From Nemertoderma westbladi (lineage: Eukaryota; Animalia; Xenacoelomorpha): 64,000 bases of DNA. Both the position numbers and the translations under genes were made by a program. The notes under the pieces are model-generated. The model was not told the origin of the DNA. It made no database searches and saw only the letters and a list, made by a program, of their open reading frames with translations. Numbering within the stretch: the first letter of the stretch is position 1; every line of letters starts with the position of its first letter. This document shows, piece by piece, positions 1,691 through 35,084 of this stretch. The stretch covers positions 1 through 64,000 of the forward strand of contig JAUCBJ010008125.1 of the NCBI GenBank assembly GCA_032718475.1. The letters are read 5' to 3'.

Positions 1691-1711
1691 CTTGATTTGT
1701 ACTTCAAGATT

Positions 1712-12920: not shown

Positions 12921-13130
12921 GATACATTCTCATGGATGTTAAAAAACATATAAACCAATATAGTAACTCCTAAAACTACAAAACCTACTGTATAGTAATC
13001 TTTATTGTTCCCTGGTGGCACCAAATATTAAGTAGATTGTATTATTCATGTAAAATCGGCATGTCGTCAGTTAAACAAATCTCAATATAATATTGAGATA
13101 CCAAACATGTACCGGTGTAACAGGAAAATA

Positions 13131-15172: not shown

Positions 15173-15397
15173 TATGTCCCCCCGGAGAATGTGCCCCCGG
15201 GCATTTCTTCCTAGGAAAAAATGCCCCCCTTAGAAAATTATGCCCACCCCCCTGATTACACTATTTTATTGAAGACTGTCTGACTCTGAGATTGTATGCA
15301 CAACTGATCTCAGCCTATAAAGAGACCCCATACTAACACCAACCATTACTTTGGGGACCGTTCTATAAACACTTTTATATATACCGCTTATTATATG

Positions 15398-15718
15398 AGT
15401 AGTATACAATACATGGTTCCTCGCACAAGGTCACCCGTAGTCCATCATTACCATCCATTTCTGGTACTGCAGCCAATCAGAAGCCACCATTTCAACCTTT
15501 TGCAGTGGTCGTTATTATTTCAACCAATCAGATGTCAGCATTTCATCCGTAACCATGGTAACTTCTCATGTTCCCGCTTATTCCGCTAGAGGCGTTATTA
15601 GTCACCCAACGCTAGTACTGCATCCAATCACCAACCTTTATTTTACAGGTGTTCGGGTGTCTACACTTAGCATCAGGTAACTTCTATTATTTTTCAAATC
15701 GCAATTTTTCAGCAACCA
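15398..15718 (+). repeat. Polinton left terminal inverted repeat
   Basis: Reverse complement of ~33326-33646, with only about 4 mismatches seen by eye. Confidence 0.95.
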
Positions 15719-16638
15719 GTATTTTCATATTCACCAACCTTTATTTTACAGACGCTAGGGGTGTCTACAGGTAACTTCTACTAATTTTCATCAGTAACTA
15801 AATTTAATTTTGCAATTTTTCAGATAACAAAATATTCAACCGGGTTCGAACTCGGGACTGCTATAACTCCTCACAACTCACTACTCACTCTTCCATCCAA
15901 CCTCGAGAGAAAAAGGCGATAATTATCCGTGTTATAACAAAATATTCATTCGATGATATGATATGATATTGCACTGTACAGCACGTAGCCTAACCTAACC
16001 ATCTATTCGTATACCTACCATAGCTATGATGGTTACTCTTCCTTTCACTTTTTTCTCTCCCTCTCTCTCTCTTTAGTGTTGTTTGTTATTGATTGATTGT
16101 TGTCAACTCAATGATTTCCTATCCACCCACCCGCTACTTGGCCACGTTGCTGTATCCTTGTGTTTTACTGCAATTCTCCACTCACTCTTCCATCCAACCT
16201 CGAGAGAAAAAGGCGATAAATATCTGAGTTATACCATAGTCATTGAATTCTTCATCTTCATCACTGGTAGCAGATGTTTATAAATAGCTTCTAGTTCCTT
16301 AACATAATTACTATAGCGTAGAATACATTAATTCGACTATTAATAATAATCGATTTCTTTTATCGATGTAACTGGTCGATCAACTAAGTTGAATATAAGT
16401 TAGAATGACAGGGCTAGCATTGATCACGTTGCATCTGTTACACGTTACTGCTATTTCACTCTCTAACTCACGCTAATGTAATAAATTTAGCTGTACACGT
16501 TGCATCTGTTACACGAAGCAACTATATTCCTCACTGTAAGTCACTCTGTTTTATTAAAGCAAGCATATAAACCGAAGTTTTACATTCTAATAATCATTTA
16601 TTTAGTTTTTATTTTTCAAAATAGTTTTCATTCTAATT

Positions 16639-17683
16639 ATGGATTTATTTAAAAAAACTTCAAACAATACTTGGAAATTTACATTTAATAAATATACCTG
16701 TAGTATTGTTTATGGCAAGTACTTTATATTACTCTCAAGCGATAGCAATGTATCAACATGCTTCTCTTACCAGGATACACTCTACCTTCTAGACGTCTTA
16801 GAAATATTAATCAACCGACAAAAGGAATCACCAGTTTCAAGAGGTAATATTTATCCTAATATAGAATTTACAAGAGGAAAGTTAAATATTTCCACCTGTG
16901 TTATTACTGAAAACGTATATATTCAGAAGCAAGGCAAATGTCAAAATTCTAAACAAATCACTCATTAATTTATTGCTTCAGAGTAAGACAGAAATATTAG
17001 AATTGTTATCACCACCACTCGAAATAATAAATCAGTGTTCTGTTGTTAATTTAACCAACCCATCTTTTGTTGGTTTTGTAAGCAAATATAAAGGAGCAAC
17101 TTATATGGGACTATGGGAGATTTCAGCTAGATATTCTGATGCTATTGGTCTTAGGTATTATAATGGGTTTAACTTAACAGCATCGGAAGTAAATTCATTG
17201 TGGTATGAATGGAATTATGAAATTAGTAACGAAGGTGTCTTTTCAGAGCTAGATACGGACGATAAAGCTTTATCTGACCGACTTAAAGTAAAAATAAATG
17301 TACAAGAAAAAAAAGTAATTATTACAGACAAGGAAAGCAAATATTTACAGTTACATTACGATAAAGACATACCATATATAGAGTTTCTCTACGATATGAT
17401 GTTAAATGTTTCATCAACTGATATAGCAGACGGTTTCGCGATTCTATATCCACCAACTTGGAAGTTTAAGGTTAATAAGTCATTTCCAGAAGTAGTTTCA
17501 TCCACATTTAATCCAAAGACATATATCGAAGAGACCTCGAGTGATAGAAAGCGCAGATCTACATCTCAAACATCTTCCATTCCCGACAATGATTCTATAC
17601 CTACAAAGAAAATAAAAGCTACAAAAGCAAGTGAAGAGGTAGCAGATTACAATAAGGAACATATAAAAACAGTATCAGATTGA
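16639..17683 (+). CDS. Polinton protein with a PC4/Sub1-like domain, probably one gene frameshifted near 16915
   Basis: ORFs 16639-16968 and 16898-17683 overlap at a TATATA run. FVSKYKGATYMGLWE...GFNLTASEVNSL resembles the PC4 core VSVRDFKGKVLIDIRE...GISLNPEQWSQL. Confidence 0.6.
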
Positions 17684-18239
17684 TTTATTATTAACTAGAG
17701 ACTTTTCTTTTTCAGTTTCACACTGACTTGTAAAGGTAACTTTTTATCACAAAGCGTGATTATTATAAAGTATTTGCATGTAAAGGTGACTTTATTGAGT
17801 AAATATTGGTGATAGTTTATATTTAATGTGAGCACGGGATTAGGAATAAAACATTCGCATGTAAATGCATGAGTTTACACCACCATAATAAAACATTTGC
17901 ATGTAAAACCTACTTTATCAATGAAAATTAAAAACGTATTATACACATCTTGGTTTAGACTTGATTTTATTATAAAGAATTCAGTTGTAAAAGCAACTTT
18001 ATTTATGATATTAGTTTCCAATGTAACTGTTATTTATGATTGGTTGGTATAAGTAGAAACTTGAAATATATATATATATAAAGAGCTCAACTGATTCATT
18101 CGAGCTCATTCTGAAAATATTAAATTAATTAAAGTTTAGATATTATATTTTATTTGTGTTGAGTAGCTTATGAATTTTTTTGATTATATATATAACAATA
18201 TTCATATTAATTTTAAATTGTTTTTAGGATAATAAAGAG

Positions 18240-19067
18240 ATGGATAAACAATTGAAATGTCCATTTTGTCCTCTTCAAATTTCTAAACGAAATTATTTAA
18301 CACATGTGAAATCTCATTTTGAAGAATACAATTGTTTTAATTGTCGAGTGAAATGTTCACGTGAAGAAATATGTAAACGACATGAAACGACTACAGGATG
18401 TAAAGAAATGAAGTTTTGCGTGTATGAAAAAACTTGCCCTACTTGTAATAAAGAGTATTTATATGAGAATTACTTACGTCACGACTGTCACCAACGTTAT
18501 TATCATGTTAGACCACCACCACAACGGAACCAAAACAATACTATCGTATCTAGAAAAAGACTGAAATCTGGTCAAGGTTCATCAATTTTTAACATTGAAC
18601 GAGCCGCACACGATAACCGTTTAGAAATCTATGTTTACAATCTTCCAAATGATGAAGATTTTCCTGATATTCATTCATCATTAATTAAAATTCTACCTCA
18701 CATCCAAACTTTATTATTAGGAAAACTTAGCGAAATGAATGTACTTAGACCCTGGCTAGGTGTGAATATACTCATGTATCGATCACATTTTTCAGAGGGT
18801 GATCAAGAAGAAGCTTTCTATTTTAGTTCTCCAGGTGGTTCAGTTAATACCGTAGATTCACATGAAAGTTTTGACACATGGTTTGAGTATGTATTAGAAA
18901 AATTAATGCAAAAAATAGCCATGTTTAACACTCGTGGCTCAGGGTGGCGTGTTAAATCTTTATTAAGGGTTGAAATTAAAGTAGCTGAATCCAAGTGTAG
19001 GTCGTTACTATATAAGGGACACGGTTATATGGAGTTACCTAAGGCTCTATCAGTTAAAAACGGCTGA
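18240..19067 (+). CDS. pPolB N-terminal region (zinc fingers plus terminal-protein region), cut off by a frameshift
   Basis: CPFC..H...H and two further CxxC units; KIAMFNTRGSGW and YMELPKAL motifs typical of Polinton pPolB N-termini. Confidence 0.85.
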   Translation: MDKQLKCPFCPLQISKRNYLTHVKSHFEEYNCFNCRVKCSREEICKRHETTTGCKEMKFCVYEKTCPTCNKEYLYENYLRHDCHQRYYHVRPPPQRNQNNTIVSRKRLKSGQGSSIFNIERAAHDNRLEIYVYNLPNDEDFPDIHSSLIKILPHIQTLLLGKLSEMNVLRPWLGVNILMYRSHFSEGDQEEAFYFSSPGGSVNTVDSHESFDTWFEYVLEKLMQKIAMFNTRGSGWRVKSLLRVEIKVAESKCRSLLYKGHGYMELPKALSVKNG

Positions 19068-22000
19068 TAATGATTGTTTTAAATGGGCAATTATAGCTAC
19101 AACATTTAGTAGCAAAGTGAAGAACAACAAATATCGTACTTCGCAGTACAAAAATTATATGGGTCATTTTATTTTTGACAACGGGAACAAAGATTATCCA
19201 ACAGAATGGCAGCTTGCAATTAAACTTTTTGAAAAACAGAATTCAGCATATATAATTAATTTATTACTCTACAACAACAATCGAGTATCTATATTAAGAC
19301 AGGCACCATTTAGTAAAATCACTCCAGATAAAGAGTTATTGAATATATTACTTGTAAAAAATAAGAATACAAGTAAACAATCATATTATGTTTGCATAAC
19401 TAACTTGAATCGTTTGATGAATACGAGAGCTCTTCATACTAATGGTAGGAAATATTGTGAACGGTGTTTGGCGCCTTTCTACACCAATGATGTTCTAGAA
19501 CGTCACCGTCTTGTTTGTTATCGAGGAAAAAGTCAAGTTGAGAAGCTACCATCTGAAAAAAGAACTCACATTAGCTTTAGAAATTTAGACAGAACATTAC
19601 CAGCATTGTTTGTAATATATTTTGACATAGAATCTATTTTGGAGCCAGCCACCAACAGTAAATTTATTCAGAATCATATTCCATGCGCTGTAAGTTATTT
19701 AATTGTTCCTAGTGTCGAATTAATCAATCCACCAAAATTTTATTTGAAGACCTTTACAAAAACAATCGACAACAACTGTATTCAAGACTTTTTAGACTCT
19801 GTATATAATGACATCACCCAATTATATAAGTGGTCGGAAGACCACACAAGAGAGAGAATGATACTTAATGATGCAGATAAGTTAAGTTTTTGGAAAGCTA
19901 AAACTTGCTTTTATTGCAATGTTTTATTTAAGGATAAGTCTGAGAAAAACAAACATCACTCACATATTACTGGTAACTATATAGCGGCCGCTTGTAACGC
20001 ATGTAACCGCTCTTTATCGTTGAAACGACACATGTATATACTCGCTGCACACAACTGCAATCTCTACGATTTGCATTTTCTTTTGCAAGTTGGTTTTAGC
20101 AATAATAAATATTCCGATTGGGATATAAAGGTGATCCCTAAAAATTCTGAAAGGTATATTTCACTAAGCATGCATATACCGGTGAAAAACTCAAAAACAA
20201 AGATTGAGCTACGTGTCTTAGACACATATCAATTTTTATCCTTTTCCCTAAGTACTTTAGTTGATTGTTCAACAAAGGATATAGACAGCGAGGATATAAC
20301 ATCAGTTCTACCAATTACTGAACAGCAAATGAAATATTTTTATCCAAATTTAAATAATGCAACAATTAAACGAAAAGGTATATTTCCCTACGAGTATCTG
20401 ACAGATTTAAATAAATTCAATGATTCGAAATTACCATCAATAGACAAATTTTATAGTAAATTAACACAAAATACCTGTACACCCGAGGAATATAGTTTTG
20501 CCAATGCATCATGGAGTCAGTTTGACTGTGTGAATCTCAAGGATTATCTTTTAGCATACTTAAAACTCGATGTTTGTCTCCTCGCTGATATATTTGAGAA
20601 CTTTAGGAGAGTGTGTAGACAAAACTACGAATTAGAAGTAGTTTATTATTGCAGTATCGCGGCTTTCACTTATGATTGCGCTCTGAAATACAATAAATGT
20701 AAGTTAGCATTAATAAAAGATTACCAAACATATAGAGATTTTGAAGCATCTATTAGAGGAGGGGTTTCATTCTGTCGAAAGCATTATATAGAATCAAATA
20801 TACCAGATACTGATAATTATGATCCAAGCAAGGAAGAGTGTCATATTTTCAATATAGATTTTAATTCCTTGTATTCTGGTAATTTAAGTAAAAAGCTACC
20901 TGTTTCAGGTTTTGAACAAGTCAACGTTACATATTTAGAGAATGCTGCTCCAGAAGAACTGATAAAATATTTATCAAATCTTGATACTGAAGGTGATATT
21001 GGGTTTTTCTTAATTTGCGATTTGAAATATCCCAAAGATATTCACGATCGTACATTAGAACTACCCTTAGCTCCAGAACATTTAAGTATAAATGAGACAA
21101 TGCTTTCACCATATATGAGGGAACAATATAATCATGTTTGTAAACAAAGAGGCACTAATAGCAAGTATAAGATGTGTGCACCAAAACTTATGTTGACACA
21201 ATTCGATAAAGAATTCTATCATGTAAATTTAAAACTGTTAAAATTTTATATAAAACAAGGTTTAATTGTTACTAAGCTCCATAAATTATATTCTTTCCAT
21301 CAAGACTTTGTATTTAAACCCTATATAGATTTTAATATTAATCAAAGGCGGTTAGCAAAAAGTTACATTGAAACTGCTGTCGCGAAATTGCTCAATAATT
21401 CTCTGTTTGGTAAAACAATAGAAAAGATAAGAGATCGATGTAACTTTCGTATCGCTAATAGTAAAGAAAAATGTGACCAATTAGTCAAACGAATAAATCA
21501 TGAAAATTTCATGATTTATAACGATTCCTTATCGGGACATTTATTAGTAAAAGACTCTGTAACTCTCGATAAGCCGGTCTATATAGGTAGTACTGTCTTG
21601 GACTTGGCTAAATTGGATATGTATCAGCTGTATTACGATAAATTGCTACCTATTGAGAAAGAATTAAACTGCCGAATTGAAATTGTAGCATCAGACACGG
21701 ACTCTTTAATAGGTTGTTACTATAATACATCGCAGAATAATTTTTTAAAAGCCTTAATTAAAAATAATATTCTAGATACATCCAATTACCCCAAGGATCA
21801 CCCTCTCTACAGCGATAAAAATAAATCCAGGCTCTATTACTGTAAAGACGAACTAGCCTCACGAGAGATTAAACAAGCGGTATTTTTAAGACCAAAATTA
21901 TATTCAATTTTGGAATTCAATGAATCCAACATACGACGTGCGAAAGGAATAACAAGAGCTGTCGTGGATAAAAATATTTGTCACGAAGATTATTTGAGGG

Positions 22001-22242
22001 CATATTACGATAACGAAGAAATTTCCAAGGAAACACATCAATTTCAGAGTAAATTTCACAAAGTGTATACTATAGCACGAGACAAGTTTGCTCTCAGCGC
22101 ATTTGATGATAAACTTTATTGGGTTAATAAAAATCATTCGCTTCCCTGGGGTCACTATCAAACAAAGGTTGAAAAACCTATGAAAAAAAACAATATACCA
22201 ATTTATCGGGAACCAAACAATGAACTATCAGATAGTCAATAA
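19063..22242 (+). CDS. Protein-primed family B DNA polymerase (pPolB)
   Basis: DNDCFKWAI, ExoI YFDIES, ExoII HNCNLYD, KGIFPYEY, ExoIII YLKLDV, IRGG, motif A DFNSLY, motif B KLLNNSLFGK, motif C SDTDS, RPKLYS, KGI. Confidence 0.97.
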   Translation, partial: ADNDCFKWAIIATTFSSKVKNNKYRTSQYKNYMGHFIFDNGNKDYPTEWQLAIKLFEKQNSAYIINLLLYNNNRVSILRQAPFSKITPDKELLNILLVKNKNTSKQSYYVCITNLNRLMNTRALHTNGRKYCERCLAPFYTNDVLERHRLVCYRGKSQVEKLPSEKRTHISFRNLDRTLPALFVIYFDIESILEPATNSKFIQNHIPCAVSYLIVPSVELINPPKFYLKTFTKTIDNNCIQDFLDSVYNDITQLYKWSEDHTRERMILNDADKLSFWKAKTCFYCNVLFKDKSEKNKHHSHITGNYIAAACNACNRSLSLKRHMYILAAHNCNLYDLHFLLQVGFSNNKYSDWDIKVIPKNSERYISLSMHIPVKNSKTKIELRVLDTYQFLSFSLSTLVDCSTKDIDSEDITSVLPITEQQMKYFYPNLNNATIKRKGIFPYEYLTDLNKFNDSKLPSIDKFYSKLTQNTCTPEEYSFANASWSQFDCVNLKDYLLAYLKLDVCLLADIFENFRRVCRQNYELEVVYYCSIAAFTYDCALKYNKCKLALIKDYQTYRDFEASIRGGVSFCRKHYIESNIPDTDNYDPSKEECHIFNIDFNSLYSGNLSKKLPVSGFEQVNVTYLENAAPEELIKYLSNLDTEGDIGFFLICDLKYPKDIHDRTLELPLAPEHLSINETMLSPYMREQYNHVCKQRGTNSKYKMCAPKLMLTQFDKEFYHVNLKLLKFYIKQGLIVTKLHKLYSFHQDFVFKPYIDFNINQRRLAKSYIETAVAKLLNNSLFGKTIEKIRDRCNFRIANSKEKCDQLVKRINHENFMIYNDSLSGHLLVKDSVTLDKPVYIGSTVLDLAKLDMYQLYYDKLLPIEKELNCRIEIVASDTDSLIGCYYNTSQNNFLKALIKNNILDTSNYPKDHPLYSDKNKSRLYYCKDELASREIKQAVFLRPKLYSILEFNESNIRRAKGITRAVVDKNICHEDYLRAYYDNEEISKETHQFQSKFHKVYTIARDKFALSAFDDKLYWVNKNHSLPWGHYQTKVEKPMKKNNIPIYREPNNELSDSQ

Positions 22243-22765
22243 GAATGTAAGGTGCCAGCAAGTGTCAGCGATTAATTTGAAAGAATTAAAAAATCAATTA
22301 TCTGGTAAACACATACTCAAACCAAATCAGTTTATATATAAGATATTTGGTGCCACATTATTAATATTTAAAAATGGTCGTATTACATTATTAGGCAGTA
22401 AGTATAATTTCCAAAAAGTAAAAAAACATATATTTGATAAAACTAGTATTAATTTGATTTTAAAATCTGTTAATTTATGTACTTATATTTTTAGTATTAA
22501 GTCTGTAGTCTATAGGTTATTGATAAACAATACAGGGTTTTATGTTGTCTTTGATAATGTGCAACTTCAAGTTATATATGAACCTGAAATTTTTAATAAT
22601 TGCAAAATAAGAATAAATAATACCGTAGTCATTTGCTGCTTTCATACCGGTAAATGTACTTTAATGTGTTCACCTAGCAAATTTCACATTTATTACCCTA
22701 TATTTAGTAAACTTGTTAATTATTTATTAATGTTTGGTGTTGTGACTTTAGGTGTTGGTGATTAG
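22220..22765 (+). CDS. TATA-binding-protein (TBP)-like protein, 181 aa
   Basis: Two TBP-type repeats: QIVN...INLKEL...ATLLIFKNGRITLLGSK and SVN...YEPEIF...VICCFHTGKCTL...YPIF. Length equals a bare TBP core. Confidence 0.85.
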   Translation: MNYQIVNKNVRCQQVSAINLKELKNQLSGKHILKPNQFIYKIFGATLLIFKNGRITLLGSKYNFQKVKKHIFDKTSINLILKSVNLCTYIFSIKSVVYRLLINNTGFYVVFDNVQLQVIYEPEIFNNCKIRINNTVVICCFHTGKCTLMCSPSKFHIYYPIFSKLVNYLLMFGVVTLGVGD

Positions 22766-22849
22766 AAGGTGAAAATTAAACATTATTATTTTTCAATCAA
22801 TCAATCAATCGATAGTTAGGGAAAACTAACCTCGTTTGAATAAGCATGA

Positions 22850-23820
22850 CTCTCACGGGTTGACTGCGTGCCTAGCTGCGTGGCTGGCTGCGTGCCGCGA
22901 GGCTGACTACATGACCGACCGCGAGGCTGACTGCGTGCCGCAAGGCTGACTGCATGCCGCGAGGCTGACTGCGAGGCTGACTGCGTGCCGCGAGGCTGAC
23001 TGTGAGGGTGGCTAGATGGCTGCAAGGTGGACCGTTTCCCAGCAGTGTGGCTGACTGCGCGCACATCCGATTGTAACTGGCTCACGATAAAGTATACATT
23101 GACTCAGTTTGTTACTGCGGGTACTGTTACATTAATACTGTGGTACCGGTACCGTACTGCAGTACAATGCTAATTAAAGGAAATCAGCATGCTCTATCTG
23201 ACTATACTGTTACATCAAGAACAGCGACAGTACTGCAGTACTGTATTGTTTGGGTAGGTGATCTAATCCCTATATGTGAGAGCTACGCGTCCCTTCTAGG
23301 TTATGACAGCAGTATGCTAATCAAGGTTCGGGTAGACAGCAGTATCCTTATAGTTGAAAAAAAACAAATGTTATTACATCAGATTACCGCTGTACTGATA
23401 AAATGGATGACAGTTGTGGATAGGAGTTGCGAGGTTGACCACATCCCTCGCAGTGTGGCTGACTGCGTACAAATCTGATTGTAACTGACTCACGATATTG
23501 TATACATTAGCCTAGTTTGTTACTGAGGGTACTGTTACATTAATACTGTAGTACTGGTACCGTACTGCGGTACAATGCTAATCAAAGGAAATCAGTATGC
23601 TCTATCTGATTATGCTGTTACATCAACAACAACAGTACTGCAGTACTGTATTGTTTGGATAGGCGATCTAATCCCTATATGAGAGACTCCTGCGTGTAAT
23701 CCAGATCATGACAGCAGTATGCTATTGCTTCAGATTACTGCTGTACTGATACCAGTAGACTGTGACTACAGTGTTGGAAGAGTAAAACACTACCGGTACT
23801 GATAAAGCGGATGACAGTTG
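22850..23820. repeat. Polinton internal non-coding repeat region
   Basis: GC-rich GGCTGACTGCGTGCCGCGA units at 22860-23060, then a ~407-bp-period direct duplication (CAGTGTGGCTGACTGCG at ~23043 and ~23450). Confidence 0.85.
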
Positions 23821-24190
23821 TGGTTAGGCTTATAATAAATTATTGAATTTATCAGTACCGGTACCAACAGGTTAACACTACATCCTATACAGTTTATGTT
23901 GCATTTCTGACTAATATTACTAGTCAACTACTGTATGTGTTATTAGTTTGCGATGTATAGGATGTTTCGCAATACCAGTATATCTATATTAGAACGATAT
24001 CGAGAATACTTACTGTACATGTTACGTCTACGTCATATTGTTAAATGTGCATGGTTAACCTACCGCGATTGACTCTTTTAGAGAACTTGTTGTAAAAAAA
24101 ATTATATTTTATTATATTTTTATATTAACATCAAGATCATCACCAAAATAAAATTATATTATCCCATCACATTACATGCTTAGAGTAAAC

Positions 24191-24790
24191 CTACAGTACA
24201 TCTTCCACCGCAGTTATTTCTTTCTGTTTATCATCATCATCAGTCGCAGTTAAACGCTTTCTCATGAAAAAGTGTAGAGCCTCAAACCAGCCAACACGTT
24301 TTGCTGAGCAGTATCGCAGACAGTTATCCCTTATGTTTAAGTGGAACGCGCATTTACTTTCCATTGTAGTGAATCGGTCGTGAAATCGACAAGGTGTTAA
24401 ATAATCGTGATATTGCTTATATATTCCCAATTTCTCCACCGAATTTGGCTCGAGAACATCGAGTTGGGAAACTAATATTGCCCGCTTCATCAACCCAAAT
24501 ACATGAATATTTTTTTTATATTTTAAATGTCTCTTCATATATTTTTTAAAGTCATCTTGAGAAATGTCCCCATAGTCCCAGGGCAAGTGAGAAGTCATAT
24601 CTCGTAAATTGTTTACGTGAGCTGCATCTAAAGCTGATAACTTAATATTAGACGGGCCTTTAATTAAAAACGTCTTTACATTAGTTTTGGTGTAATTAGA
24701 ATCGTATATTGCAAATTCTTTAAATACTACCGGATACTCTTTATTGTCTATCTTATAATATTGAAAATCAACAAAAATAATATTATCCAT
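24191..24790 (-). CDS. Polinton accessory protein, possible DEDD/DnaQ-fold exonuclease-like
   Basis: IIFVDFQYY...FKEFAI, LPWDYGDI, IHVFG..K and a C-terminal C..H/C..H..C cluster. Confidence 0.55.
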   Translation of the reverse strand: MDNIIFVDFQYYKIDNKEYPVVFKEFAIYDSNYTKTNVKTFLIKGPSNIKLSALDAAHVNNLRDMTSHLPWDYGDISQDDFKKYMKRHLKYKKNIHVFGLMKRAILVSQLDVLEPNSVEKLGIYKQYHDYLTPCRFHDRFTTMESKCAFHLNIRDNCLRYCSAKRVGWFEALHFFMRKRLTATDDDDKQKEITAVEDVL

Positions 24791-24821
24791 TTTATCTGAT
24801 AAACAAAAGTTAAATAATTAA

Positions 24822-25274
24822 TTACAAAGTTTGTTGGTTTAATTTATAATAATTAACAAGCCATTTATATAATATAATTTCATTGATTTCCACATTATTT
24901 GTAAACGCTCTCATTGGATAGATTGTGTAAATACGATTTACCAAATAATAAAGACAGTATAGACCGCATGTGGTCCTCCTGGGGTCTTGAAATTGTTTGC
25001 GTGTAGTACGCCACCTTGCGGAATTTTTCTCAAGCCATTTTTCAATGCATCTGTTTGGATATTTTGGTCCAAACGAGTCAAATACTTCGGCCTCATTATC
25101 TCGTATATATATCGCGATCCAATGAATCCCAGGCAGATGCTGTTTATCGGTATTTACTATCAAACCATAATCCTGCCGCTTATTATTATCTAATTTAGGT
25201 AATTTATTAGCTGGAAACGCGCCCAAATAGTGACCACCCACTGGAAACATATCAAGGTCCTCTGTAGATAACAT
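24822..25274 (-). CDS. Adenain-like cysteine maturation protease (PRO)
   Basis: IVNTD...GIHW, FDSFG, Q.....TCGLYC catalytic His/Asp/Cys. Confidence 0.95.
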   Translation of the reverse strand: MLSTEDLDMFPVGGHYLGAFPANKLPKLDNNKRQDYGLIVNTDKQHLPGIHWIAIYIRDNEAEVFDSFGPKYPNRCIEKWLEKNSARWRTTRKQFQDPRRTTCGLYCLYYLVNRIYTIYPMRAFTNNVEINEIILYKWLVNYYKLNQQTL

Positions 25275-25276
25275 AC

Positions 25277-26536
25277 TTAATCGATATGTATTTCTTTCCT
25301 GCTATTTAAACTTAATGATTGATCATAAATATTAAAAACGATTACATTTATGGTTTCAACCAACGGTTCGGCAAATCTTAATTTTAATTGACCGTTAGTA
25401 TATATCGACGGTTGCGGATCTCTAACGTTGCCGTCGGCGGTTAGGTCCCAGGATAGGATGGGACAATTACCTAAGTAGGTTTCATGGTCTATATTATTAC
25501 CCCCATAACCGTTAATATATGTATTAATGTTCTTCATTAATTGAGTATACTCAAAAATATATGTTCCATCTGTAAAATTAGGTTCGTATATTACACCCCC
25601 TACTGGAAGACCGTCTACAATCAGTTCCGCGCGTCTAAGGTTAAAATGTTCAAATTTCAAGGGATTGCTAATTAATTCTCCCGAATAAGCGTTATTTGTT
25701 ATGAAGCCAATAATAACTAATTTGGGTTTTTTACCATCAAATATGTTTGTTTGAGTGTAATTTGTGGTTTGAGCGGGAATAGTAAATGTTGTCACCTCCT
25801 TTTTTTGAAATTGATATTCAATATCGTAGCTCTCTAAACCTTTTAGGTGACTGCTTTCTATTACTGGATTAACCTCCATTCTAGGGATTAGAATTTTTAT
25901 TTCATCTAATTCTAGTCGAAGATTTGTCACGGCGTTTGCGTTTGGAGTGATTTTAAAAATAAACGAATTTGATACTTTTCTAAAATGCATTCTTAAATCA
26001 TACCCAGGTTGTATTATTTTAGTTTCAGTATCAAAATCAATCGTCAATCCACTTACAAATTGCATTTGTTTACTAAAGGCATCGGCAATAGGATGCGCGC
26101 CGGGATCAATTTCATTTCCGTGTTCAGATAAAGGTTGATGAAAGCCACCCGCACCCAGTAGCCCATTTTTATCCTCGTAAGTTGTAAATAATAAATTGGA
26201 TAAGTACGACTTGTAGAAATAATGGTTATTGCTATTTTCAACCTGCTTCTCATTAAGGTCTATTTTAATATCACTCCACATAGTTTCAGCTGGGTAATTC
26301 AGCATATAAATATGGGAGTTTTCAAGTCGTCTATCCCAACGTACTGTACATTTTGTAATTAATAACGCGTCTTGCAGTTTCGTATAGAATTCATTGGATC
26401 TGGGTACAAGGAAGGTGACCTCCCTAGATTCACTTCTGAGATTAGATACGGGGTAAATTGTTTCATAATGCTTTGCTTTAAATTCAGTCTGTATTGGCTG
26501 TGTAGAAAATAAATCTAATTCCTTAATAATTGACAT
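25277..26536 (-). CDS. Double jelly-roll major capsid protein
   Basis: ELDLF...IQT, PKLVIIGF...AYSG...NPLKFEHFNL, LKLRFAEPL; size and position typical of the Polinton MCP. Confidence 0.9.
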   Translation of the reverse strand: MSIIKELDLFSTQPIQTEFKAKHYETIYPVSNLRSESREVTFLVPRSNEFYTKLQDALLITKCTVRWDRRLENSHIYMLNYPAETMWSDIKIDLNEKQVENSNNHYFYKSYLSNLLFTTYEDKNGLLGAGGFHQPLSEHGNEIDPGAHPIADAFSKQMQFVSGLTIDFDTETKIIQPGYDLRMHFRKVSNSFIFKITPNANAVTNLRLELDEIKILIPRMEVNPVIESSHLKGLESYDIEYQFQKKEVTTFTIPAQTTNYTQTNIFDGKKPKLVIIGFITNNAYSGELISNPLKFEHFNLRRAELIVDGLPVGGVIYEPNFTDGTYIFEYTQLMKNINTYINGYGGNNIDHETYLGNCPILSWDLTADGNVRDPQPSIYTNGQLKLRFAEPLVETINVIVFNIYDQSLSLNSRKEIHID

Positions 26537-26538
26537 TA

Positions 26539-27099
26539 TTAAAAAATACTTTTTTCGCAGTGTTTCAGTTTGCCTTTTATATTTCTCTTTTTACTACGTC
26601 GATGATGTATGTTCATAGACATTGGTCTAGCGGGTCGCTTTAAATCTCTATAAACTTTTTCTACAACCGACCTTGTTGACGGTTTCATTTTATTTAATGC
26701 TTTATTAATAACCGTATTAGCCTGCTGATGTAAGACCCGCTTACCTTTTGGTATTACGTGTTGTCTCATAAATTTTGTGGTAAATGGTAAAGCTTTCTGT
26801 AAAACTTTTTTAGCTAATGGCTTACCAAATTTTTTCAATGTCGATAAGGCGTCTGTAAATATACCTTCTCCGTGTTGATTTGCCCGCATACCTCTAGGAT
26901 AACGCTGAAAACGACGTTGTTTTAAGTTTGGACCAAATGTGCCAATTTGTTGACCGTAAGGGTCAATATATGAACCACCACGAAAAACAGGAACTTGCGT
27001 CGAGCCTCTGGTACTTCTTCCGCCTTTAAAAACAGCAAGATTAGAGTCTGAACCCCCATATTGAGGTTTACTGTATCTTTGAAATAAATCAGAATCCAT
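26539..27099 (-). CDS. Basic virion core / membrane-lytic-type protein
   Basis: K/R-rich; QYGG, FKGG, FRGG and QHGEG glycine motifs followed by an amphipathic helix. Confidence 0.65.
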   Translation of the reverse strand: MDSDLFQRYSKPQYGGSDSNLAVFKGGRSTRGSTQVPVFRGGSYIDPYGQQIGTFGPNLKQRRFQRYPRGMRANQHGEGIFTDALSTLKKFGKPLAKKVLQKALPFTTKFMRQHVIPKGKRVLHQQANTVINKALNKMKPSTRSVVEKVYRDLKRPARPMSMNIHHRRSKKRNIKGKLKHCEKSIF

Positions 27100-27100
27100 T

Positions 27101-27955
27101 TTAATTTATACGTTTAAAGTGTAATGTAATAGAAGTTGTGCCGTATTCAAAATTCAAATCTTTTCCTTCTTTGTCTGTTATTTCAATATGAATGTATGTT
27201 ATCTTATATGATTTTTTTACAGGGATATAATGAATTGTATCCTTGACAAATTCTTTATTTATTACGCTACTATATTTCACATCATCAGGTATCGCAACAC
27301 GACGAAGTAAAGCTAAACCAAAATCGTTAATATATTGATTTTCAATTATATTAGTAGCCACGTACATGTTCGAATTAGGTTCTGGAATAGAGTTGGGTGG
27401 TTGAGGGCATAAAAATACCATCTGGTAAGCCTTTTCTCCATTTCCGATAACCTTTATTAAATAACCCTTTATATTATTTTTCGTCTTCAAAATAATTTTA
27501 AAATTTGGATTTAAATTCGCGCCGAGATTATTTTCAGTAATTCCAAAATAATAGGCTAATTGTTGGCCTATAAATAACTCTCGCACAGTTTTCCCTAAAA
27601 TAAATTGCAATCTATTTTGCTGAGTATTTTCAACTATTTGTAATTTATCTTTCAACGCTCCTGTGTTAAAATAATCTATAATGTCATTGATACTGTAGAA
27701 TAAACCAGATGGAAGTGTATCCTCAAAAATTTTTTTCCCTTTTTTTAATAAAATAACATTCTCTACATTGTTATACATGGACGGCAACGTTGCTAAGTAA
27801 AATATACTTTTTATACCTACCACCCAGTTTTCGTTTGGATTTATAGGTAAGGCGCCGTGGAAATTTATCTGATAATTACTAGCGCTATTGCGGGGAAAAT
27901 CAATTGGACAGGAATTACTTGGTAGTCTAACGTAGAACTCATCCATCACCGCCAC
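27101..27955 (-). CDS. Minor capsid (penton) protein, copy 2
   Basis: FYVRLPSNS...FPRNSASNY, WVVGI, MYVATNII...LLRRV, YIPV, ITLHFK. Confidence 0.85.
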   Translation of the reverse strand: MAVMDEFYVRLPSNSCPIDFPRNSASNYQINFHGALPINPNENWVVGIKSIFYLATLPSMYNNVENVILLKKGKKIFEDTLPSGLFYSINDIIDYFNTGALKDKLQIVENTQQNRLQFILGKTVRELFIGQQLAYYFGITENNLGANLNPNFKIILKTKNNIKGYLIKVIGNGEKAYQMVFLCPQPPNSIPEPNSNMYVATNIIENQYINDFGLALLRRVAIPDDVKYSSVINKEFVKDTIHYIPVKKSYKITYIHIEITDKEGKDLNFEYGTTSITLHFKRIN

Positions 27956-28811
27956 CCCGTATTAACTTAAGTGTTATAACAGTGCGACCTCCGCTGAAGT
28001 TAATTAATTGGCCTTGGCCATCACGTAAAGTAATTAAGATTGTTTTTAGTTTTTTATTCAACAATGGGAAATAGCAAATGCTCTCGTATTCGTGATTAAT
28101 ATATTTTCGATTTAATTGCGTTAAAGGGCAGGTTCTTAAGAGCGGAGCTAAAGCGTCGCCAACAAATGAGCTCTTAATAATATCTGTGTATATAAAGATA
28201 GTGTCTTTATTACGTGTTATATTTGTGGGAGCTGGAAAATCTAAAATGCCAATTTCCGAAATTTTTGGCCCGCTATAATTTAAAATTAATATCGGCTGTT
28301 CTATATTGCTTAATTCATCTACTGTAGTGGTACTGTATATATCCCAATTCGGAATATCCGGATGATTCCGATCCAATAACGGTTTTAAGCCTAGAATTTG
28401 TATTAATTCGCCGCGTAGACTTAATTGTATTTTTTTCAACTTTTTAGGAAATTTAAATTTAATTCTAGAATTATTTGTATTAAAAATGAATTCGAAATCT
28501 CTATATTTCGCTTCAGAATTAAACAGTTTATTTATATCATCAATAATCACTTGAATAGAGTTATGCATACCAGGAAATAAACTATATAATTTGGCATCTT
28601 TTGCATCTACCCCGATTGACAGCGAAATTTGAGTTTGCAGCGTAATATTACTGTATGTTGCTTGGTATTGAAGTTCGGCAAGTCCAATTTTGGCATTTGG
28701 ACCAATATATAATTCTTCGGCTAAATCAACAGTAAACTCACTAGGATTATTATTGGGATAAGTGTTCAATGAGCTATCTGAAAGTAGAGTGATATATGTA
28801 TCTGTGGCCAT
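27939..28811 (-). CDS. Minor capsid (penton) protein, copy 1
   Basis: YITLLSDSS...YPNNNPSEF, IGLAEL, IFIYTDII...VGD..APLLR, YFPL, ITLKL. Confidence 0.85.
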   Translation of the reverse strand: MATDTYITLLSDSSLNTYPNNNPSEFTVDLAEELYIGPNAKIGLAELQYQATYSNITLQTQISLSIGVDAKDAKLYSLFPGMHNSIQVIIDDINKLFNSEAKYRDFEFIFNTNNSRIKFKFPKKLKKIQLSLRGELIQILGLKPLLDRNHPDIPNWDIYSTTTVDELSNIEQPILILNYSGPKISEIGILDFPAPTNITRNKDTIFIYTDIIKSSFVGDALAPLLRTCPLTQLNRKYINHEYESICYFPLLNKKLKTILITLRDGQGQLINFSGGRTVITLKLIRGGGDG

Positions 28812-29060
28812 TATTATTATTATTTAAGCTCGCTCTCTCTACTTGACTCCTTTGTACATACAGTATAATGTTAAATTATAGACATCTGTGACCACGTTCA
28901 TTGCCAGCATCTTCTACAGTATATGCGTGGGATCAATATTTTACTGGCTTTATTTAAAGCGGATGAACTATAGATATAGTAATATCATTCGAGTTAATAT
29001 TATTGATTAATTACGGTCATATGCGAGCAAAATGAATTAATATACAGTATAAACCTAAGC

Positions 29061-29190
29061 TTATTGAATATGCTGTACCCAGGACTGTTTCTTGGATCCG
29101 ATGAATCGGACTAAATATTCTTTCTTCCCATTGCGTACACGTTCTTTAAGTTTGCCAATATTTTTTTTGTCAATTGCTAGATTAAATATT
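29061..29190 (-). pseudogene. Out-of-frame chromodomain-like integrase tail
   Basis: A shifted frame reads IFNLAIDKKNIGKLKERVRNGKKEYLVRFIGSKKQSWVQHIQ*. Confidence 0.65.
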
Positions 29191-30141
29191 ACTATTCGGG
29201 TGGACCTTTTGGAGTTCGTGAGAATAAAATGAGCCCTTTATTATAGCTCCGGTGCTGTCCTTAATATCGAACATTACCGCTGGTACTCTATCCAACCTGA
29301 CCCGATGAATAATAAATAATTCACGTGTCCATTGTTCTCGATAGCCTTTAGCAAAAGCAGTACGAGCAATAGATAATCGTACTGTATCTCCAACTTTAAA
29401 TTTTATTTTCTTGTGATTTATCTGTCTATATTTCCCATATAATCTATTCATTAATTCAGTTTCATTAAATTTATTAACTTCAATAGGTGTCATTTGTATT
29501 GTTCTATGATACGACCTATTATAAGCCGAGATAAGCTTAGGTAAAATTTTTATCCAAATATTATTTCCCCTTTGCGTGAAAATTTTGAACATCTTTGTTT
29601 TTAAGGTTCTGTTAAATCTCTCGACAATAGCCGCCTTATTCACAGAATACATTACGTAATACTGTATACCTAACGTATCTAAATATTTCCTTACAGATTT
29701 ATTTAGAAACTCAGTACCTTGATCTGTGGCGATTCTGTTTGGTTTTCCTTTCTGGAATATTTTTTGCAATATACTAATAATTTCAACACCCTTTTTTGTT
29801 TTCATAGCATAGCCAAAAGCAAGTCGACTGAAGGCTTCAATGCACGTTAATATATAGTTATAATTATTATTTTGCGACTTATATTGCTGCATATCCACCA
29901 GATCTATCATATATATATCTTTTATACCTCCCGTAAATATTTTAGATGTTGGATAATGTTGTCTACGTGGAGCGTGAAGGGTGTACGTCTTTTGTCCGCT
30001 CAACCATTTCTGGGCTTGCGCCGGTTTGATGTTTGCAGCTTTTGCTAATTTTGCAACACTCGCAAATCCCGCGGGGGATGAAGGATCTAAATAAATTCTT
30101 AACAGTTTTTTGTCTAAGCTTCGGCTTAAAATCGGTTTCAT
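29182..30141 (-). CDS. Retroviral-like (rve) DDE integrase
   Basis: YLDP..PAGF, YTLH, IDLVDM, TDQGTEF, VERFNRTLK, YNRSYHRTI, F.KGY...WT.ELF, GSFY..ELQ. Confidence 0.96.
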   Translation of the reverse strand: MKPILSRSLDKKLLRIYLDPSSPAGFASVAKLAKAANIKPAQAQKWLSGQKTYTLHAPRRQHYPTSKIFTGGIKDIYMIDLVDMQQYKSQNNNYNYILTCIEAFSRLAFGYAMKTKKGVEIISILQKIFQKGKPNRIATDQGTEFLNKSVRKYLDTLGIQYYVMYSVNKAAIVERFNRTLKTKMFKIFTQRGNNIWIKILPKLISAYNRSYHRTIQMTPIEVNKFNETELMNRLYGKYRQINHKKIKFKVGDTVRLSIARTAFAKGYREQWTRELFIIHRVRLDRVPAVMFDIKDSTGAIIKGSFYSHELQKVHPNSNI

Positions 30142-30375
30142 CTTGCGAGGTATCTTTTCGACAACCGCAAGTAATATGTATATTCAAATCTCTTATAAAG
30201 GGCATCACCGTAAGAACAACTGAAATTTTTTAATTATTTTCTTCGAAGTTGATGTTTTAAAGGGTTTTCTTTTTGTAGTATTTACTCTAGGTATATCTTG
30301 TGGTTTTAAATCAGCAGCTAACGGTTTACTCGATACTAAATATAATTTTCTAAATGTTACTCCCGTTTTAACCAT
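30138..30375 (-). CDS. Small Polinton ORF, probably frameshifted
   Basis: ATG at 30375 gives MVKTGVTFRKLYLV...; a second frame ends YYLRLSKRYLAR* with the TGA overlapping the integrase ATG. Confidence 0.4.
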
Positions 30376-30381
30376 TATTAC

Positions 30382-30765
30382 CTACCGTCCACGGTTAATT
30401 TTTTTCGCAATAGCAGCCCCCGCGGCCGCGGCACCGGCACTCGCGGCGAGTTTCGCACCAATGCCGAGTAAGGGTATTAGAAACGGTAGTATGCCTCCAG
30501 ATTGATTGCTTAACTTTTTTCTGTAACTTGATATATTTTTTGTTTTACGGTTGAGTGATTTCAATACCTTCTTATAGCGGCGAATATTTCTAAATGAATG
30601 AGGAGTCAATTGTACATTACCTTTTAGAACATTTAATGCAGTATTTATAATGAGCCGTATTAATTCGTTACTGGCGGTATGGTTAATAAAATAAGTTCTT
30701 TGTTGAGGGGTAGCGCTGCATAGAAATTCCAGTTCGTTACGATATTTCTGCACAAGTCTATTCAT
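30382..30765 (-). CDS. Basic Polinton core protein with probable protease cleavage site
   Basis: ALNVLKGNV.L and QSGGILPFLIPLL followed by a hydrophobic Ala-rich tail. Confidence 0.75.
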   Translation of the reverse strand: MNRLVQKYRNELEFLCSATPQQRTYFINHTASNELIRLIINTALNVLKGNVQLTPHSFRNIRRYKKVLKSLNRKTKNISSYRKKLSNQSGGILPFLIPLLGIGAKLAASAGAAAAGAAIAKKINRGR

Positions 30766-30802
30766 TGTTGCAACATTATTGAAAATTGTTACAAAATATT
30801 AA

Positions 30803-31483
30803 TTATTTATCATTATTATTATTATTATTTTCACTACGTTTATAGTCAGTGTAATTTTTAATGTAACAATTATGATTACGAAATATATCAGATCTAAATC
30901 TTAAATGTTCGGGTGTTTCCTGTCGTAAATCAATTAAGAAATGTGAAAATGGTTCAATTGTCGCATCTTGATAGGAAGCAACTAAAAATTTGGTCTGCCC
31001 TGGTAACATCTGCTTCGCGAAATTTAAAACCGATAGACTGTCTCTCGGATTTTTCATTAATACTAAAGTATGGCTATTAATTGATCTTGTGCGGTTATGC
31101 TTCCCACCGTAAAACATGTTTTGCGTTATAAAACAAATAAATATATTGGAATGATGAGCTACCTTAGTAAACAATACAGTTAAAGCTGTACTGGACTCAG
31201 TTTCTGTTAACAAATCATCTATAATTAATAAATCTCGACTATTCACTAAACTATCTATATTTTCAGGCAAGCCTTTGTAAAGGTGAGTAATACCAGGAAT
31301 AGTCGGGGGATTGCTCCCGTAACAATACAATACTCGCAAGGGGGCTTCGTTGAAACAACCATTCTTGTGTTTAATTAAATTGCTTACAAAGGTTGACTTT
31401 CCGGAGCCAGATGGCCCTGAAATTATCATACTTGTACCCATTTGAAAGTTTAAATTATATGGACCTGAATTAAAGTCAGCCAT
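30803..31483 (-). CDS. FtsK/A32-like genome packaging ATPase
   Basis: Walker A GPSGSGKS, Walker B LLIIDD, LFTK..HH, ITQN, KNPRD, IDL....PEHLRFR. Confidence 0.96.
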   Translation of the reverse strand: MADFNSGPYNLNFQMGTSMIISGPSGSGKSTFVSNLIKHKNGCFNEAPLRVLYCYGSNPPTIPGITHLYKGLPENIDSLVNSRDLLIIDDLLTETESSTALTVLFTKVAHHSNIFICFITQNMFYGGKHNRTRSINSHTLVLMKNPRDSLSVLNFAKQMLPGQTKFLVASYQDATIEPFSHFLIDLRQETPEHLRFRSDIFRNHNCYIKNYTDYKRSENNNNNNDK

Positions 31484-31693
31484 TTATTATTATTATTAAG
31501 ATATATCAACAATACAATATAATATAATATCAATATCAATAAACCAACACCATTACTATGTATATAACAATAATTGATGCAACTACAATATTAGAGTACT
31601 GTATATTTAATTAACATATGATACCACTACACTATGTCACGCTCGCTGCAGCAAAAGGTGCTATTTCCAATTATAGTATAGACTGATGTAATT

Positions 31694-32146
31694 TCAAGCA
31701 TGGTGAGCATCTTTATACGCGAAATAATGATAGGTAACATCGGCGGATTGGAAATCACTTCCCGAAAATTTCGCGCTAATGATTTTTTTATGTTCGCTTC
31801 TAAAAAAATAAGGAATATAGTAGCAACAGCGTCGTACTACGTTTCTATAAAAAATATTCTCCAATATTGTAAATAAATCTCCCGGATCATTACTTTTCGC
31901 AGAAATATAAGTTATATTGCGAAGCTCTTTCCAATAATAGGGTTGGTATCTTGCCAACTTTATATTAAACTTAGATATGGGTGCGCGACAAATAGGACAA
32001 ATTTTAGAACAATAATTATTCATTTCGGAATATTGTGCAATACATTGTACGCAAGTTGCATGTTTATTTTCACATTTATAATAATCTCGATGTTGTTGCA
32101 ATAACTTAGAATAGCAAACTGGACATTTTTCATTTAAAATATCCAT
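31694..32146 (-). CDS. RING-finger protein (putative E3 ubiquitin ligase)
   Basis: CPVC...CENKHATCVQC...CPICR, a C3HC4-type pattern. Confidence 0.8.
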   Translation of the reverse strand: MDILNEKCPVCYSKLLQQHRDYYKCENKHATCVQCIAQYSEMNNYCSKICPICRAPISKFNIKLARYQPYYWKELRNITYISAKSNDPGDLFTILENIFYRNVVRRCCYYIPYFFRSEHKKIISAKFSGSDFQSADVTYHYFAYKDAHHA

Positions 32147-32314
32147 TTTCCAAATTTTAAAGTAAATTGAAAATAATTACCACAATACACAACAACAACA
32201 ACAACAAACAAAACTGTTATACTGTATATACAAATACTACTACAATTTTCGATTATTTAAAAACAACAAAATTTTATATATAATCATAAAATATTTATAA
32301 TATAGAGGGAAAAG

Positions 32315-32761
32315 TCAAGAATCAATGATATTATCAACATATTCAACATTATCCGCTGATTCTTCAGGTTCGACAAAGGATTCTTTTGAAATCATTACAA
32401 TAAAGAAAGACATAATTTCGTAGGGGCTATGCCGATTTAGCCGTATTTCAAACTTTTCACCAGCTTCGTTGTATTGTGTAATAACAATAAATCCCTCTAT
32501 CATGGATAATAGTAAAATGTTGCTTAATTTTCCTCCCCCATGCTCAGCTTTCAGGTTGTAATCTAAAAGATGAATACTATTATCAGAAGCATCAATATCA
32601 ATTGAGCTTAAAACTTTCCTGGCTTTTTCAGAAAATTCAATTTTATATTTATCATCTCCCTGACGGTAAATTGTATAATCAATAACAATATAGGCTTGAC
32701 CATCTTCTGCAAAAAATGAATGCCTTACCATTGGCATAACCATATTGGAATCAGAAGACAT
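32315..32761 (-). CDS. Polinton hypothetical acidic protein
   Basis: 148-aa ATG-initiated ORF with a TATA-like run upstream at ~32860. Confidence 0.65.
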   Translation of the reverse strand: MSSDSNMVMPMVRHSFFAEDGQAYIVIDYTIYRQGDDKYKIEFSEKARKVLSSIDIDASDNSIHLLDYNLKAEHGGGKLSNILLLSMIEGFIVITQYNEAGEKFEIRLNRHSPYEIMSFFIVMISKESFVEPEESADNVEYVDNIIDS

Positions 32762-33325
32762 TATTTAATTTATTTTATTGTAAATCAAACAAACAAAGTA
32801 AAAACTTTTAAACTAAAACCATTACAAATGATTAATTGCGATTAAAGCAAGAGATTATATATATAAGATATTTTCAAAAATAATACAGGTCTTAAACTGA
32901 GAAATAGCCTAAATTCGGTTTATTGATTGGTTGATTAGCTGGTGGGTAACTACTGTATAAACAAAAAAATTATTGCGTAATAATCACTAATGCTCGTATA
33001 CGCGTAGCTAGAACGTGACGGAATCTCATGTATCATACTAGTTGGTTTGTTGATTTGGCGACAGCAGTCGTGGAGTTGGCAATCAATATAATATAATATA
33101 TGCATGATGCGTGTAGTTGGTGGCCACGTTGTCAGCATATACAGTATACAGTGGTTGGTTGCGTGGTAGTGGCGGTAACGTGGTGAAAAGGTGAATAACC
33201 GTAGGGTTAGGCAAACATCGCTGTTGGTTGAGTGGTTGGGTGGGTAACAGCTGTGGATTGAGTAGCGATGGGATGGGGGCTAGCCATGCATCGTGAGGTT
33301 AGGCTATGTGAAGATGAATATGCAA

Positions 33326-33646
33326 TGGTTGGTGAAAAATTGCGATTTGAAAAATAATAGAAGTTACCTGATGCTAAGTGTAGACACCCGAACACCTGTA
33401 AAATAAAGGTTGGTGATTGGATGCAGTACTAGCGTTGGGTGACTAATAACGCCTCTAGCGGAATAAGCGGGAACTTGAGAAGTTACCATGGTTATGGATG
33501 AAATGCTGACATCTGATTGGTTGAAATAATAACGACCGCTGCAAAAGGTTGAAATGGTGGCTTCTGATTGGCTGCAGTACCAGAAATGGATGGTAATGAT
33601 GGACTACGGGTGACCTTGTGCGAGGAACCATGTATTGTATACTACT
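33326..33646 (-). repeat. Polinton right terminal inverted repeat
   Basis: Mirror of 15398-15718; ends GTATACTACT followed by the TSD TATATG. Confidence 0.95.
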
Positions 33647-35084
33647 TATATGAAACACTTGGCAATATTTTTCATAAACATTTTTTTTTCATAAATAAGT
33701 AACACACATCACAAACCAATTGAGGGGAAGAGGAGGTTACAGAGGCAGGCTTTGTAACCAAAACAATAAACGGCCACTTTGCCAATAGAGGGAAAGAAGC
33801 ACGTTACAGAGGCAGGCTTTTCTAACCAAAACAATAGCCGGCCATTTTACCAATTGAGGGTCTATTGATGGACTATTCTTTAAATTTATCTTATTTTTAA
33901 GTATTTTTGATTTAATCACAATAAAATATAATTTATCCAGCGTTAGTCGTCAGCTTTGCAGCCCTGTTTAATTCAACAGCAGTTATTACTGCCTGACCTT
34001 AGCTGTATGCAATATATTACAGCAGGCCTATTCAGTTACCGGTAGTTGGAGGGGCAATCATTATGGAACACCGGGTACATACAGCATACAGACTCCTTAA
34101 ATTTGTGTCTACTGTACATACAGTACAAACCGAATGAACCTCTTTTTCAAAAAACATGATGTGGGGCACACATTAATTGCAGTACATATTCTCGTGTTTT
34201 TTTTTCAGATAGTACTGTAGGACTACCATCAGAGACCATACCGGTAGGTACATCATGCCAAATCATGGTCTCATCTCGAAAGGGGTTACAGTGCTCATTT
34301 ATGCCATTTATATACTGTATATTATTATAAACGCCGGAATTGATGATATTTTATAGAGATCCCCTTTAATATCGTGGCATTAATGTTTGCCAAAAATTAA
34401 CAATAGATGTTGCGATTCATCCACCACCATTTATTTATTATTCATTTCAATTCATACTGTAATAAATGTCGACGATTCTAAGCCAAGGCCTATAAAGAGT
34501 CAAGGGATCACATCACATGATAGGTGGCGGTGCAAAAACAGAGCCAGAAACAAAACTATTCAACATCGCTCGCTCAACCATTACAAACTTGGCGATATTC
34601 GATGACGGAGTATAGGGAATTTATTGACTGACAATGTTTCGTTTATTTAAGCACCCTTAAGGTAGAATGCAGTACAGTATTGGAGCAGGGTTTAGCACAG
34701 ACAGGTGATTCACATAAGCACGTTGAAACGTTCGTGGGGCCTCGCGCAGCACTCGAACTTGAGCAAGTTCGCAACACGTTCGATTTGATCTGAAGTCAAA
34801 AGTTCGAGAGGTATTTGCCCGTAACTTTCAAAAATATTGGAACTTATTCTGTAGTATGCCCATACACTATTTGGTTGAAAAGGGTTAGAATTGATTCAAA
34901 ACAAAAGTGACAAAAGTGATTTACGAATGAATTTTTCATTACAGATCGACAGACAGACGGACATGCAGATGGACATGAAATTTTGCCTTACAGTATTTAC
35001 TAATTACAGTATAATTGTGCGCTAAGGCTCGCCCTGTCTGTGTGGCTCGCCCCACATACTGTACAATATGTCGCTGAAGTTCCA

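Follow-up and report, generated by a model that had tools for sequence, protein, structure and literature searches.

The window, by which we mean the whole 64,000-nt stretch of a Nemertoderma westbladi contig that was analyzed, carries a complete Polinton/Maverick element (Table 1). Polintons are marked by long terminal inverted repeats (TIRs) with 5'-AG...CT-3' ends and by a 6-bp target-site duplication, and here 314-nt TIRs, AGTAGT/ACTACT ends and a TATATG duplication were found. The repeats differ at 3 of 314 nt, which suggests that the insertion was recent. Two small open reading frames (ORFs), the gene for protein-primed DNA polymerase B (pPolB) and a gene resembling that of the TATA-binding protein (TBP) lie on the plus strand. 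A RING-like ORF, an ATPase, a pX-like ORF, an integrase, putative capsid genes, a protease and others run convergently on the minus strand. The spacer between the two blocks, possibly a regulatory region, contains a duplicated stretch of ~180 to 280 nt and GC-rich repeats of 19 nt.

In this copy, a frame break near 19060 divides pPolB into ORF 18240-19067 and ORF 19159-22242, and the tail of the integrase, presumably a chromodomain-like motif, is out of frame; either decay or an assembly error may have broken these frames. Six catalytic motifs, which we take to be ExoI-III and Pol A-C, occur in order in the pPolB region, which had no polymerase match in Pfam, PDB or PHROG. The same three resources lent no support to the putative major capsid ORF, which sits where a Polinton would be expected to encode its double jelly-roll capsid protein, and ORF 16639-16968 had no usable match in the ESM Atlas. 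Across the 17 ORFs of the element, Pfam gave no match to the TFIIB family at E ≤ 1, a search that a remote homologue may escape, and no match to an RNA polymerase was found in the 18-kb element. Pyrimidine-rich, splice-acceptor-like stretches ending in AG (18215-18240 on the plus strand and 24790-24815 on the minus strand) lie immediately before two start codons, that of the first pPolB ORF and that of ORF 24191-24790, respectively.

Table 1. Features of the Polinton and its ends (positions in the window)
Feature	Position	Strand	Remarks
Whole Polinton/Maverick, 18,249 bp	15398..33646		Ends AGTAGT...ACTACT
Left TIR, 314 nt	15398..15711		3 mismatches to right TIR
Right TIR	33333..33646		Pairs with left TIR
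Target-site duplication TATATG, 6 bp	15392..15397 (left), 33647..33652 (right)		Same on both flanks
pPolB	18240..22242	+	Motifs taken as ExoI-III, Pol A-C
TBP-like gene	22220..22765	+	Core only, without N-terminal extension
Overlap of TBP start and pPolB ORF end, 23 nt	22220..22242	+	pPolB ORF ends at 22242
ATTAAA, candidate poly(A) signal just 3' of TBP stop	22775..22780	+	Inferred; possibly common to pPolB mRNA
Spacer between convergent plus- and minus-strand gene blocks	22864..23724		Repeat-rich, non-coding
Adenain-type maturation protease	24822..25274	-	Pfam Peptidase_C5, 26.7 bits (cut-off 21.3)
Putative major capsid protein, 419 aa	25277..26536	-	Label from size and position only
Two putative minor capsid genes	27101..28811	-	Weak tblastn to one ORF of metagenome locus L035, E = 2.6e-6 and 3.6e-4
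rve integrase	29182..30141	-	Pfam rve, 42.4 bits (cut-off 32.6)
Packaging-type P-loop ATPase	30803..31483	-	Pox_A32, E = 9.5e-4, below cut-off; 32% identical to L035 ATPase
RING-finger-like ORF, right arm	31694..32146	-	Pfam matches below cut-off

The TBP-like ORF is intact over 181 aa, from its ATG to a TAG ending at 22765. An earlier note, made from the letters alone, had placed its start 23 nt inside the 3' end of pPolB; these coordinates agree with ours, and all the TBP-like motifs it named are present in the ORF. A stop-free run of more than 107 codons arose in none of 2,000 base shuffles of the ORF. The two TBP-like repeats of the earlier note were recovered as two stretches matching Pfam TBP (PF00352) at 38.2 bits (E = 1.3e-9; curated cut-off, 22.9). 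Likewise, a profile built from 120 other TBPs scored the protein at 33.4 bits, whereas the highest-scoring of 1,000 residue shuffles reached 8.8, and detected no second TBP-like frame in the 64-kb window. The sole match among 1.84 billion representatives was a 171-aa protein with the source name TBP (E = 7.5e-4). In the ESM Atlas the three best clusters were TBP clusters at 0.95, a weak result (recognition 1988), and these clusters were at least half viral as judged from the few members with a record.

Direct searches with the protein reached little further. No TBP was returned by phmmer against PDB at E ≤ 10, none of 39 word-sharing candidates scored in a direct homologue search, and a search of viral contigs with the TBP, pPolB, alignment A2 and the L035 TBP as queries gave no relative. 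The protein is at most 27% identical to each of 44 TBPs placed in a tree with it. A single-sequence structure model was uninformative (pLDDT 37.7). The model built on the TBP alignment reached a pLDDT of 65.5, with residues 81 to 124 poor and the middle unreliable; it matched only TBPs in PDB at E ≤ 1e-3, and TBPs in BFVD as well, matches that are circular because the model was made from a TBP alignment. Judged by its sequence, the protein is a very divergent, two-lobed member of the TBP family.

Residues were assigned yeast numbering through a collinear animal TBP and checked against Table 1 of PMC12529657, from the retrieved part of which we also took the 17 DNA-facing positions. Seven of these are identical in the window protein (N69, F99, L114, F116, N159, F190 and F207), one is conservative (L189, here Ile) and nine are changed (V71N, A101Y, V122T, T124L, V161C, P191N, L205C, V213T and T215M). 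Two pairs of equivalent positions in the two lobes, V122/V213 and T124/T215, changed in parallel (to Thr/Thr and Leu/Met). Beyond the DNA face, G119, G125, Y185-E188, R196, G210 and K211 are kept. Where the earlier note counted at least three intercalating Phe residues, all four are retained (F38, F50, F125 and F141), as are the two base-contacting Asn residues (N7 and N85), with N85, the N159 equivalent, being the least certain anchor of the numbering. MAFFT alignment A1 had put N95 forward as the second Asn; spacing and alignment A3 favor N85.

The protein thus resembles cellular TBPs (PF00352; yeast 1ytb, human 1cdw) in its two lobes, four Phe, two Asn, YEPE loop and basic character (pI 9.7), and differs from them in lacking an N-terminal tail, in N-lobe losses of five and eight residues, in a nine-residue gain in the C-lobe and in replacement of P191, G192, G216, T124 and T215. 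Pattern scoring of 231 other TBPs shows the first three of these to vary hardly at all (230 have Pro at P191 and 230 have Gly at G216), and DNA binding could therefore be impaired. The five-residue loss falls in the N-lobe hairpin, between F99 and F116, a region that carries R105/R107, which contact TFIIA and phosphate. The eight-residue loss shortens helix H2 and the linker, although the remaining helix is still basic. P191 helps to favor T at the first TATA position, according to the retrieved text of PMC12529657. H2 carries a basic patch used by TFIIA, TAF1, Mot1 and Brf (PMC7221094, seen in excerpt), and contacts to these regulators would presumably be lost with its shortening. The C-lobe Glu pair E121 and E123 is kept, and corresponds to E186/E188, described in the same excerpts as TFIIB contacts. 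Read from the sequence, the pattern would be one in which the bending residues and the TFIIB loop are kept, the base-reading face is altered and the regulator side is trimmed. Canonical eukaryotic TBP orthologues have a near-invariant DNA face and a full-length N-lobe regulator surface, neither of which was found here; because 9 of 17 DNA-face positions are changed and the hairpin and H2 are shortened, we class the protein as TBP-like rather than as an orthologue.

The stretch recurs, whole or in part, in six of seven listed sequencing runs from four studies; the best run may be the window's own source, and none of the listed runs with the stretch is on file as an RNA data set. In four runs, 197, 88, 3 and 6 contigs aligned to 22243-22765, and no indel was listed in this interval across them; summed contig depths are not copy numbers and show only that many variant contigs exist. 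The best-supported 40 of 63 differences, which are not a random sample, fell at codon positions 1, 2 and 3 in the ratio 9/4/27 (third-position excess, p = 1e-5), with 22 synonymous and 18 non-synonymous. The resulting pN/pS was 0.20 unweighted and 0.28 with transition weighting (p ~5e-5), as uncorrected counts on non-independent contigs, compared with 0.09 to 0.12 for pPolB (23 rows). Among the rows listed, the codons of Y120, F125, N127, C128, C140, G53, R54 and G59 had synonymous changes only; E121 is replaced by Asp in some copies. The TBP gene is thus under purifying selection, and it is less constrained than pPolB. A TBP match by profile search, linkage to a Polinton and purifying selection, on which the earlier note had made its reading depend, were all found, and we conclude that the Polinton carries a genuine TBP-like gene, strongly diverged and under selection.

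pPolB is likewise joined to TBP in a subfamily with ~84% identity (46 differences over 293 nt), where the junction is 18 nt longer. The adjacency to pPolB that might be looked for in homologs holds in this subfamily, but it fails in another Polinton. Among 80 metagenome loci kept of 125, one, L035, has Polinton-type genes near a TBP relative; it carries an ATPase, an integrase and a minor-capsid-like ORF, and its 177-aa TBP (P0122) lies head-to-head with the ATPase. Polinton TBPs therefore occur outside this genome as well, and they do not always overlap pPolB. Like the window protein, P0122 is a core-only TBP of ~170 to 180 aa, encoded among Polinton genes, with an FHTGKC stretch (FHTGK occurs in 3 of 236 TBPs compared); unlike it, P0122 keeps the canonical FPG. 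At 4651-4657 the L035 TBP and ATPase overlap in their start codons, so that the promoter of each gene would sit inside the coding sequence of the other.

The phylogeny against other TBPs that the earlier note had called for was built by a quick method from 45 of 237 proteins, and it could not place the window protein, whose end branch is 8 changes per column long and which did not group with the L035 TBP. We therefore claim no donor. Short, core-only TBPs (~170 to 180 aa) like the window protein also occur elsewhere in the tree: P0002, P0003, P0004, P0123 and P0124 (171 to 180 aa, on short contigs) form a clade with an SH-aLRT of 98 in this quick analysis, which stands apart from the eukaryotic and archaeal groups and is possibly another viral TBP family.

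Searches for a promoter motif gave no target of significance. The best upstream motifs were equalled in 4 to 39 of 40 trials with random windows, so that none stood out, and shifted-start controls matched the best words in 1 to 4 of 100, the winners being plain AT-rich words as expected of intergenic DNA. One candidate, ANATACAT, chosen after the fact, lies 19 to 100 nt upstream of 5 of 12 minus-strand genes, which accounts for five of its six occurrences. Similar words are found at the end of the element, including TATACA and ATACAT within its first 20 bases. No instance of the related pattern A[ACT]ATACA[TG] occurs in L035. The proposal in the earlier note that the element supplies its own promoter-recognition factor is consequently only partly sustained: it fits the retained Phe, Asn and Glu residues, and no significant target motif accompanies it.

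On balance, we lean toward the hypothesis that the Polinton TBP binds to non-canonical, AT-rich boxes within promoters of the element itself, bends the DNA and would recruit host TFIIB and RNA polymerase II (Pol II) there. Synthesis of the protein would be early, from an mRNA of the pPolB strand that probably shares the pPolB poly(A) site. Its four Phe and two Asn could still kink DNA from the minor groove, while the changed DNA face (V122/V213, T124/T215, V71N, V161C, L205C and P191N) would shift its specificity away from TATAAA. E121 and E123 may dock host TFIIB, which we propose as the partner because no viral TFIIB was detected; that the Glu pair is kept and none of 17 ORFs matches the TFIIB family is why we think a reading through host TFIIB and Pol II the most likely. 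The shortened N-lobe hairpin and helix H2 might loosen control by TFIIA, TAF1 and Mot1, and, by analogy with the herpesvirus late-gene TBP mimics, its likeliest targets would be the capsid, packaging and integrase genes of the convergent block. Several observations weaken this hypothesis: the searches established no promoter box common to the genes, P191, G192 and G216 are replaced, the gene is less constrained than pPolB, E121 is Asp in some copies, a divergent TFIIB may lie among the ORFs left without assignment, and most viral TBPs are thought to use a viral TFIIB, having drifted at the two Glu residues in its company (PMC7221094, in the excerpts retrieved). A stronger version, in which a TBP re-specified in both lobes acts as a one-protein promoter switch, reading a private non-TATA box and nucleating a TFIID-independent Pol II complex on host TFIIB, is tenable, though we hold it to be somewhat doubtful.

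The same residues could belong to a decoy or repressor that binds TATA-like DNA or titrates TFIIB without forming a productive initiation complex, thereby damping host genes or early promoters of the element. In its favor are the kept TFIIB-contact Glu pair beside an altered N-lobe regulator surface and many altered DNA-face residues, and the lack of a significant target motif. All four Phe and both Asn are retained, however, the parallel changes in the two lobes look like re-specification and not loss, and a herpesvirus TBP mimic with a changed DNA face is an activator (retrieved text of PMC12529657). We regard a decoy or repressor as unlikely, if worth keeping in mind. Host DNA-bending factors aid protein-primed initiation in adenoviruses, and a role in replication, with the protein bending the terminal origin in the TIR for initiation by pPolB, would accord with the overlap of the two genes, the link kept in the diverged subfamily and the TATACA and ATACAT words at the terminus. 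It would give no reason to keep a TFIIB-contact loop whose changes are synonymous or conservative only, nor does it suit L035, where TBP adjoins the ATPase and not a polymerase, and we find it improbable.

A further alternative is that the protein recruits a Brf-type TFIIB paralogue for Pol III, or raises all transcription of the element without timing. Brf1/2 use the same Glu (PMC7221094, in excerpt) and no late-only motif was found; Brf also uses the N-lobe basic patch, however, and H2 and the linker are eight residues shorter here, which makes this alternative highly improbable in our estimation. Extreme divergence, as in the long end branch, and the broken pPolB and integrase frames of this genomic copy would be natural in a captured host TBP decaying without function. 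Against this stand the intact TBP frame, the third-position bias, a pN/pS well below 1 and the lack of any listed indel, by which decay is largely refuted and retains hardly any probability.

The Polinton protein can be compared with two known kinds of viral TBP. The beta- and gammaherpesvirus mimics (KSHV ORF24 and relatives; PMC12529657, retrieved text) likewise keep the four Phe, have an altered DNA face and use host Pol II. As described there, KSHV ORF24 is a 752-aa multidomain protein within a six-protein viral complex and is without the TFIIB-contact acidic residues, whereas the window protein is a bare 181-aa core that keeps them. TBPs of large double-stranded DNA viruses (NCLDV and mirusviruses) share divergence and an altered N-lobe regulator signature with it, but almost all of those genomes encode a TFIIB-like partner (PMC7221094, in excerpt), none of which was detected in the 18-kb Polinton.

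The earlier note left novelty to a literature and database search, and the novelty proves to be limited. A TBP-labelled gene appears in the legend of Fig. 5 of Starrett et al. 2021 (PMC8502044) for MELD viruses with an adintovirus-like PolB; there too, a linear element of medium size combines a Polinton-type PolB with a TBP-like gene. The passages found give no more than this label, without analysis, and the section concerned deals with non-animal datasets. The retrieved supplement text gave no match to TBP or TATA; the window element, by contrast, is integrated and multi-copy, and comes with selection and residue analysis. A term search for TBP found nothing in the retrieved text of PMC11131425, PMC12220804 and PMC11161782, and that of PMC10675990 mentions it only for mirusvirus-like elements. 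What does stand is that literature searches outside subscription content found no functional study of a Polinton, Maverick or adintovirus TBP.

To our knowledge, the control of Polinton genes is essentially open. Polintons are the presumed forerunners of several groups of eukaryotic DNA viruses. Although such an element is often regarded as a transposon, its possession of a TBP under selection suggests that its genes follow a programmed, viral cycle of transcription, and a strategy of large viruses is thereby found at a scale of 18 kb. With its naturally rewired DNA face and intact TFIIB loop, this small TBP also offers a direct and easily assayed test of the residues that set TBP specificity. 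If the promoter switch were true, the protein would be a minimal orthogonal system of eukaryotic promoter recognition and would give a first handle on the timing of Polinton capsid genes.

The element lies among other repeats and one long gene. By its left end, at 13123-15180, 54-nt inverted repeats set 1950 nt apart around a 22-nt palindromic array are probably a non-autonomous DNA transposon, and genes of a BEL/Pao LTR retrotransposon (DUF1759, Peptidase_A17, integrase zinc finger and DUF5641) extend over several minus-strand ORFs at 464-8634. A single uninterrupted plus-strand ORF of 3321 aa (49181-59146) has VWD, C8, TIL, EGF and ZP domains in a tectorin/zonadhesin-like arrangement and is unusually long for an animal gene without introns. 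Just upstream of it, at 42060-47983, a 38-nt unit whose GC and AT skews are extreme is repeated in tandem ~156 times. A fragment of a Pif1-type helicase, possibly Helitron-derived, lies on the minus strand at 61229-61906.
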